Shown: positions 36,451 to 37,105, counted from the first letter of the stretch. The stretch is 64,000 nt of DNA from an uncultured Clostridia bacterium (GCA_963559365.1 CAUWKC010000001.1:57459-121458); one strand, 5' to 3'. Numbers and translations are program-made. Notes: generated by a model from the letters alone, not told the origin.

Positions 36451-37105
36451 ATGAAAAAGCCTGAAAGCCTTGCGGGAGTACACACACACACACACACACA
36501 CCTTATGTTTACTAAATAAAATCAAAGAGGAGAAAGCATCAATAACTTTATTTACATTAATAGCATGTTTGTTTTTTATAATTATACTATTATTAGTAAA
36601 TATAGGAATGATAAATAAAAAAACAAATCAAGAAAAAGAATTAGAGCAAATAGCAAAAAATTATAATATAAGTGAAATAGATTTAGAAAATAATTATAAA
36701 AAAGTGGCAGATGAAAATGAATATATTACTAGAAGTGAATTAAATCAAGCTATAGAGTCTATTACTGCAATATTAGGTTTAGGCGGCATAGAGGAAAGTG
36801 GCTCAAGTTATATTAGATTTAAAGATGGCACACAAATTGAATGGGGAGACTTTATTTTGCCTGCTAATACTTCCAACAACAGTAGGACAGCCAAAGTTAC
36901 AATAGCAAAAAATTTTAAAGATACTGAATACCAATTAATTTGTTTTGGAAAACAAAATGCCAATAGATTAGTTAAATATTATGAAGGTGATACAGGTGGA
37001 AATCCCAAAAGAACAAACTCTACTTTTCAAGTTTCAGGTGTAACAGATACGCCAAACAATTATAATATACATATGGAATATATTTCTATTGGCAAATGGA
37101 AATAG
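36451..37105 (+). CDS. membrane-anchored surface protein whose 5' end carries an (AC)10 tract; ATG 36451 with strong RBS is out of frame with the body (apparent TTG 36470 has no RBS). Putative phase-variable gene, currently OFF
   Basis: AAAGGAGG-9nt-ATG; the ATG frame hits a stop 7 codons after the repeat; adding one AC unit fuses it to the 36470 frame. Confidence 0.5.
36481..36500 (+). repeat. (CA)10 dinucleotide simple sequence repeat
   Basis: Seen directly in sequence. Confidence 0.95.

Follow-up and report, generated by a model that had tools for sequence, protein, structure and literature searches.

Organization of the locus

Between the housekeeping genes GH15, for a glycoside hydrolase, and gap of the window, the whole 64,000-nt stretch of DNA analyzed here (28.3% GC), lies a gene for a predicted surface protein whose 5′ coding end is divided by a dinucleotide repeat. 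The first base of its Shine-Dalgarno sequence is the last base of the GH15 TAA stop codon (36433-35). An ATG at 36451 opens a short leader, a perfect 22-nt (AC)11 tract follows, with its first AC 29 nt past the ATG, and the body of the gene lies beyond it in another frame. The features of the locus are as follows.

36435..36442, + strand: Shine-Dalgarno sequence AAAGGAGG, read from the sequence, 8 nt spacing to ATG 36451
36451..36519, + strand: leader ORF in its present OFF register, 22 codons (MKKPESLAGVHTHTHTHLMFTK), stop TAA 36517-19
36468..36479, + strand: 12-mer CCTTGCGGGAGT, encodes ..LAGV and abuts the 5′ side of the tract; used as search key
36470..36472, + strand: TTG codon, doubtful alternative start without a Shine-Dalgarno sequence
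36480..36501, + strand: (AC)11 repeat, (His-Thr)n in the leader frame, proposed slipped-strand switch
36502..36522, + strand: conserved post-tract segment CTTATGTTTACTAAATAAAAT, with one stop codon per OFF register
36503..37105, + strand: body ORF, 200 codons plus TAG, in the +1 frame relative to ATG 36451 at n = 11 (n, number of AC units)
36542..36613, + strand: single hydrophobic membrane helix ITLFTLIACLFFIIILLLVNIGMI with charged KIKEEK before it, from sequence and from model helix 4-54
36608..36610, + strand: internal in-frame ATG, start of the 165-aa P0002 call, whose product is without the membrane helix
36788..37102, + strand: C-terminal beta-sandwich, body residues 96-200, from pLDDT ~97, Foldseek, PHROG and the homologues' Pfam matches

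The tract is the sole dinucleotide repeat of at least five units in the window, and 0/100 dinucleotide-preserving shuffles contained a match to it, with three mismatches tolerated. An earlier note, made from the sequence alone, had described it as (AC)10; the tract is indeed real and non-chance, but it counts 11 units, the miscount being probably explained by the (CA)10 contained in (AC)11. Translation in the frame of ATG 36451 yields MKKPESLAGV, (HT)3H over the tract and LMFTK before the TAA, and both the ribosome-binding site (RBS) with its ATG and the short frame are as the note had read them. The body is in the +1 frame as claimed; the long ORF from TTG 36470 to TAG 37105 has 211 codons, 200 of them past the tract.

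Simulating n = 5-17 gave a fusion of 214-220 aa at n = 6, 9, 12 and 15 and a product of only 18-26 aa at every other length, in agreement with the proposal that gaining one unit or losing two (n = 12 or 9) fuses the ATG to the body. The fused leader continues as ...(HT)n-LCLL-NKIKEEKASITLF into the body at the window locus, in the orthologue and in the paralogue array described below. In the two OFF registers, stops are supplied by TAA 36513-15 and TAA 36517-19 within CTTATGTTTACTAAATAAAAT, a segment that is also found 3′ of the tract in contigs L006 and L009, near-identical in L050 and more diverged in L026. On the other side of the tract, CCTTGCGGGAGT is conserved, with at most one R-position change, across the orthologue, paralogues and 39 metagenome contigs, although in the contigs this conservation is partly built in, as they were retrieved with the motif as search pattern. 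The arrangement of RBS and ATG is also present 5′ of the leader in those relatives that have upstream sequence to compare.

Other roles for the tract were considered and rejected. As a promoter spacer, (AC)n would separate TTGCGG and TATGTT, which are 28 nt apart at n = 11, while observed n is mostly 8-22; the conserved RBS and ATG ahead of the leader in relatives also oppose this reading. A terminator or attenuator at the window locus was discarded, as the 140 nt 3′ of the tract fold with z = -2.0 and form no terminator hairpin between leader and gene. Rfam returned no family, and no known riboswitch or leader RNA, over 35500-37600, and neither a promoter nor a terminator was assignable to the window gene, with 0 terminator-like sites found.

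Further downstream, at 42981-44216, the window holds a second pilin-like gene (MKKREKGITLITLAVTIMVLAIIAG...) with its own RBS and no AC leader. One in-frame TAA, at 43398-43400, interrupts this gene, whose frame resumes from 43401 onward (ORF 43422-44216) with homology to the C-terminal parts of L045-type proteins; it is a nonsense pseudogene or else a candidate for read-through. Together with carA and carB it separates gap (37217) from pgk-tpi-pgm (44427-48019). In many Firmicutes, gap adjoins pgk; because this adjacency is interrupted here, the genes for surface proteins may have inserted into housekeeping clusters. Immediately past the glycolytic genes, an ORF at 48027-48737 matches the YezG-like immunity protein family (Pfam PF04634, E = 2e-28).

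The encoded protein resembles a membrane-anchored lectin

The N-terminal part of the protein (body residues ~5-90) is a module consisting of a KEEKxSITLF motif, the hydrophobic helix and an NKKTNQEKE motif. It is common to more than 100 proteins of 60-1470 aa, and its partners in relatives include ChW, GBS Bsp-like, Flg_new, Big_2, DUF285/LRR and Gp10_C domains. An AlphaFold model built on a 34-sequence alignment (mean pLDDT 86.7) has a long helix at the N-terminus, two more helices and a beta-sandwich of eight strands. When this model was compared with the PDB by Foldseek, the matches were the C-terminal domain of the phage LKA1 tailspike gp49, the R1/R2 pyocin fibre tips and the H-type lectins Helix pomatia agglutinin and SLL-2 (set probability 1.00, E = 4e-4 to 5e-3), followed by discoidin II, another H-type lectin (E = 1e-2). 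At the sequence level, the C-terminal domain matched PHROG 2712 (tail fibre; E = 1.5e-7), and its homologues pass the threshold of Pfam Gp53-like_C (PF21882); on the window protein itself, Pfam and NCBIfam gave nothing above threshold.

A type IV pilin identity was rejected, as the window protein has no match to N_methyl (PF07963) and reads KEEKA followed by SITLF, with no Glu at +5 and with Ala instead of Gly at -1. The model, the fold matches, the PHROG and Pfam results and the surface-domain partners of the module all agree with the earlier description of a membrane-anchored surface protein, and support an architecture of membrane anchor, helical stalk and lectin-like tip. The protein is probably an adhesin, with predicted surface exposure and carbohydrate binding; GalNAc-type sugars are candidate ligands, given the H-type lectin fold. 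Its predicted leader-started product has the N-terminal peptide sequence MKKPESLAGVHT...

Start site, orthologue and selection

The hypothetical fused protein served as the query for a word-indexed search of 5.8 billion protein clusters, which returned three informative matches. The first, P0001, is 84% identical, has 216 aa and starts MKKPESLAGVHTQTHTLCLLNKIKEEK; the second, P0002, is the 165-aa call from ATG 36608 and 100% identical to the window; the third, P0003, has the leader and N-terminal module of the window protein with a different C-terminal domain. The DNA encoding P0001 (L006-L008) has the same RBS and ATG and an interrupted tract, (AC)4AG(AC)4, which is equivalent in length to n = 9 and hence in frame. 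This orthologue and paralogues P0003 and P0009 all begin at the homologous ATG and continue into the body, and on this comparison the upstream ATG is the predicted start whenever the frame permits.

Expression could instead be independent of the tract, whose effect would then be confined to an N-terminal extension or to the level of expression; three starts come into question for this, namely TTG 36470, ATA 36542, which is preceded by the Shine-Dalgarno-like AAAGAGGAG at 36523-31, and ATG 36608. We consider this very unlikely. Gene callers have produced both a 165-aa and a 211-aa product: the protein recorded by NCBI and ENA (P0002) begins at ATG 36608, and TTG 36470, open in the n = 11 register, was chosen on 2 contigs (P0006). 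Leaderless distant members of the family, moreover, begin right at M-x-x-KEEKGSITLF. However, TTG 36470 is itself part of the translated leader, lacks a Shine-Dalgarno sequence and shares the frame of the body at n mod 3 = 2 alone, the present register; ATA is a very poor start codon; and ATG 36608, at the C-terminal end of the membrane helix, is past that helix and would lose the family-defining anchor and signal. The orthologue and paralogues, in turn, use the upstream ATG when it is in frame. The earlier note had thus rightly described TTG 36470 as lacking a Shine-Dalgarno sequence, but had called it the only in-frame start, whereas ATG 36608 is in frame as well.

The body is under purifying selection: dN/dS between the window and the orthologue in L006 is 0.30 at a dS of 0.27, all 200 codons are stop-free, and the 165-aa part represented by P0002 is 100% conserved on 18 contigs. 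Given this dN/dS, the OFF allele is unlikely to be a decayed pseudogene.

Farther family members have no leader and no tract, and start M-x-x-KEEKGSITLF. One of these, at 4001-4594 of L011 (a related Clostridia MAG), is a syntenic gene directly downstream of GH15 with 42% identity and the same anchor and lectin-like architecture, again without leader or AC tract. In view of such leaderless relatives, the window arrangement looks like a leader fused onto an ancestral start and, since the L011 gene has neither leader nor tract, the window lineage seems to have acquired the switch later. That the host belongs to the low-GC Firmicutes, as had been suggested, fits its nearest, though distant, MAG relatives, which are labelled uncultured Clostridia. 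Segmented filamentous bacteria as host found no support, the samples being cat feces.

Tract length at the window locus and in tandem paralogues

Tract length was compared between the window and the five P0002-carrying assemblies L001-L005, which come from three projects and two assemblers and match the window at 99.98-100% identity across as much as 6.5 kb. All have n = 11. Two more contigs carry P0006, the TTG-start call that needs n mod 3 = 2, and n = 11 is implied for them. These consensus sequences are a small sample: n is established in the window, L001-L005 and the two P0006 contigs, and P0002 contigs total 18. Among the near-identical assemblies with a readable tract, no difference in tract length was found, and the predicted ON proteins (n = 6, 9, 12 and 15) were absent from a collection of ~15 billion proteins.

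Sister loci behave differently. In assemblies from kitten feces, two or three tandem paralogues form an array downstream of PemK-toxin and HD-domain genes, and each has its own copy of leader and tract. Paralogue gene 1 has n = 9 in L009 and L010 (ON), 10 in L063 and L064 (OFF) and 12 in L066 (ON), where the ON product is P0009 (230 aa); for gene 2, n is 10 or 11. Flanking sequences are nearly invariant. Over 3072 nt, L066 and L063 differ by 1 mismatch and a 4-nt gap in the tract (99.97% identical otherwise), and over 2796 nt, L010 and L063 differ by 3 mismatches and 2 indels, each of the latter in an AC tract. As n differs between sequences separated by 1-3 substitutions per 3 kb, tract length must be changing more quickly than substitutions build up. 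L009, L064 and L066 stem from PRJEB4391 (36 fecal samples of 12 related, co-housed kittens at 8, 12 and 16 weeks; runs including ERR318677-ERR318704), as do the window-identical L001-L003; L064 shares a sample with the window-identical L002, and L010 shares one with L005. The array carriers look like one circulating strain on the basis of these sequences.

The array comprises two copies in L009 versus three in L063, a copy-number change that is consistent with unequal recombination between the ~94%-identical 5′ modules. A further contig, L065 (1-3782), combines GH15 and a leader of the window type (MKKPESLAGV) at n = 11 with the paralogue 1 body, and paralogue 2 comes next. Its junction lies exactly at a shared 55-nt stretch and its coverage is 2.75x; it may be a binding-domain swap into the window locus by recombination, or a low-coverage assembly chimera.

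The comparison of repeat number that the earlier note had proposed was thus carried out between assemblies: n is 11 in every readable assembly of the window locus and varies at sister loci. Slipped-strand phase variation, the note's main claim, is accordingly supported by comparison with related loci rather than by direct observation at the window locus.

Two further explanations were weighed. The window allele may be a fixed frameshift pseudogene whose repeat is a mutational scar, a reading that we regard as unlikely. All window-type assemblies with a readable tract are OFF at n = 11 with no ON form of the allele recorded, and the neighboring pilin-like gene is also interrupted, by TAA 43398-43400. 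Against this stand the stop-free 200-codon body, the dN/dS measured against an ON orthologue, a tract that is perfect and long rather than decayed, and the sister cassette genes, which occur both ON and OFF in what is apparently the same strain; in addition, one added unit restores the frame. It is highly improbable, in turn, that the tract length was mis-called in sequencing or assembly across a low-complexity repeat and that the gene is really in frame. L001-L005, assembled independently in three projects with two assemblers, agree with the window on n = 11 and the 22-nt tract is far shorter than a read, even if polymerases readily slip on dinucleotide repeats during library PCR and L065 resembles an assembly chimera joined exactly at the repeat region.

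The leader recurs in related gut metagenomes

To follow the leader beyond this strain, metagenome contigs were scanned for CCTTGCRGGAGTACACACAC, in which the pre-tract 12-mer is joined to four AC units. This returned 39 contigs with a leader ..LAGV(HT)n, several of them from human gut. In almost all, an RBS, an ATG and ~6-10 codons lead to ..A.(S/T)LAGV and (AC)n. Among these homologous leaders n ranges from 4 to 22 and is mostly 9-18. Four contig pairs are distinguished by n alone, namely L041/L061 (10/12), L044/L055 (10/12), L026/L031 (11/13) and L039/L043 (12/11); their flanks are 100% identical over 150 nt upstream and 300 nt, or all that was available, downstream. Of the tracts with the leader start in sequence, a count that takes in the window, L006 and L009, 14/42 are ON and 28/42 OFF; 14/42 is the one-third expected under free sampling of registers. 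In viral contigs, the leader motif had no match.

At least 20 of the related metagenome loci have the repeat in a separate short leader ORF, which is short in every frame. Where there is enough downstream sequence, both OFF registers stop 6-35 nt past the tract, nearly always within 23 nt, while the ON register of the metagenome loci extends 38-136 nt past it. A downstream gene with its own RBS begins ~110-225 nt past the tract in most loci with enough sequence. The downstream genes encode proteins of 280-580 aa with a pilin-like N-terminus, K(E)KGITLIALVITIIVLLILAG, and these KGITLIALVITIIVLLILAG... proteins score just below the threshold of Pfam N_methyl (15.9-17.1 bits versus a cut-off of 21.2).

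Between leader and pilin-like gene lies a long hairpin followed by a U-run, with a stem of 18-29 bp and a dG of -18 to -35 kcal/mol. The evidence for these hairpins comes from ViennaRNA folds and shuffles, since bulged hairpins escaped a simple terminator scanner in L038 and, for the + strand, in L061. For seven distinct loci, the hairpin has z = -3.5 to -7.4 and 0/200 shuffles fold as well. The ON-frame stop is located in the hairpin loop, in the 3′ arm or just past the hairpin, and the OFF stops fall 20-65 nt before it. No comparable hairpin was found at the window locus, in the orthologue or in the paralogue array.

In four independent assemblies (L030, L037, L044 and L055), a 1-nt insertion, TTAGCACGGTGT for the expected TTAGCAGGTGT, just past the membrane helix splits the pilin-like gene into ORFs of 50 aa and 430 aa. 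In some of these four, the leader switch ahead of the TTAGCACGGTGT-interrupted gene is ON.

In L051, L059 and L062, leader and tract precede a gene for an 896-aa protein with neither a membrane helix nor a pilin-like N-terminus; the only hairpin there is small and near the tract, with a different geometry. Because of this protein, the cassette is not confined to pilin-like genes.

A probable translational switch and its possible scope

Taken together, we consider it likely that the window gene is controlled by a classic translational ON/OFF slipped-strand switch in the 5′ coding end of a surface-protein gene, and that it is currently OFF. The anatomy, the frame logic, the tract polymorphism of sister and homologous loci, the purifying selection and the fold are established. 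Switching of the window locus itself is the weakest link, and we infer it, the readable assemblies being all n = 11 with no ON form recorded.

According to this model, translation would begin at ATG 36451 with its strong RBS. If n is divisible by 3, the MKKPESLAGV(HT)n leader would run into the body and give an ON product of ~216-220 aa; at n = 11, or when n mod 3 = 1, ribosomes would reach a conserved TAA 12-18 nt past the tract, leaving the body without a usable start. Gain or loss of AC units in replication would toggle the state reversibly. The product would be a type-II membrane-anchored protein with an outward-facing domain like a tail-fibre tip or H-type lectin. Leader and tract would constitute a cassette, and a family of genes for surface proteins would share it among related low-GC gut bacteria, fused in frame to the gene in the window lineage and, in most relatives, as a separate upstream ORF whose long frame ends in a terminator hairpin, suggesting ribosome-mediated antitermination.

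Whether RBS-ATG-'..A.(S/T)LAGV'-(AC)n is a portable phase-variation cassette, a ~60-nt module that switches many surface proteins in two ways, strikes us as an evenly balanced question. Its clade would be low-GC gut Clostridia of cat, human and other gut metagenomes, and its targets would be pilin-like, lectin-like and tail-fibre-tip-like proteins, reached either by direct fusion or through an upstream hairpin-opening ORF. Recombination in the leader and anchor module may, in addition, shuffle C-terminal binding domains between loci, as hinted at by L065 and by the copy number of the tandem array, two in L009 against three in L063.

If these readings are true, a gut commensal lineage stochastically varies lectin-like and pilin-like surface proteins by means of one conserved cassette, and commensals would have a combinatorial cell-surface variation in which on/off switching adds to domain swaps, with a bearing on colonization, immune (IgA) evasion and phage-receptor display. 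For annotation, the 165-aa and 211-aa calls would both miss the likely true ATG, and OFF-phase genes would be under-called.

Comparison with known systems

Repeat-driven phase variation is textbook knowledge in Neisseria, Haemophilus, Helicobacter and Campylobacter; our literature search found no described case in Clostridia. Among the H. pylori genes, sabA, babB and hopZ are adhesin genes with 5′ CT repeats. The outer-membrane adhesin gene oipA/hopH of Helicobacter pylori likewise has 5′ CT dinucleotide repeats (PMC10564699). By analogy, the window gene is functionally closest to these CT-repeat adhesin genes: a dinucleotide repeat lies just past the start codon in members of a paralogous surface-adhesin family with conserved 5′ ends, and the repeat number, which sets the ON or OFF frame, differs between isolates (here, between near-identical strains at the sister loci). 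In contrast, the host of the window gene is of Gram-positive type, and its repeat is AC, read as His-Thr, and lies in a cytoplasmic or leader segment before the anchor instead of in a Sec signal peptide. The protein is predicted to be a helical-stalk, lectin-like anchored protein rather than a beta-barrel.

With phage tail fibres, R-pyocins and H-type lectins, the window protein shares the C-terminal 105 residues, modelled as the same beta-sandwich (pLDDT ~97). Unlike its phage and pyocin counterparts, however, the domain is part of a chromosomal membrane-anchored protein encoded between housekeeping genes. A phage or prophage origin found no support, given this location between GH15 and gap and the absence of the leader motif from viral contigs. 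The likeness to type IV pilins consists of a lysine-rich start, G/A, (S/I)-(I/T)-T-L and a hydrophobic helix of ~20 residues; no pilus assembly genes are present among the annotated neighbors.

To our knowledge, a repeat switch that acts through a leader peptide and a terminator is known only from Streptococcus gallolyticus. In the pil1 and pil3 loci of that species, experiments showed that changes in GCAGA repeats lengthen a leader peptide, and that a premature terminator is melted when this peptide is translated (Danne et al. 2014, PMC3894217). Judged by their layout, the relatives of the window gene (L024-L062) are closest to the pil1 attenuator. Here, too, a short leader ORF with its own RBS carries the repeat, a long hairpin lies well beyond the OFF stops, the long frame terminates within or just past this hairpin, and genes for pilus-like surface proteins lie downstream, so that the logic would be that of the published model. 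These relatives differ from pil1 in having a dinucleotide repeat, with one register in three ON versus two in three for pil1, and in regulating pilin-like genes rather than sortase pili. The window gene differs more fundamentally, having no hairpin and a leader fused in frame, and would not use the attenuator mechanism. The related loci would thus provide more than 20 natural instances of a leader-peptide/terminator switch, and one (AC)n leader cassette in two coupling modes would be more interesting than the single locus from which it was recognized.
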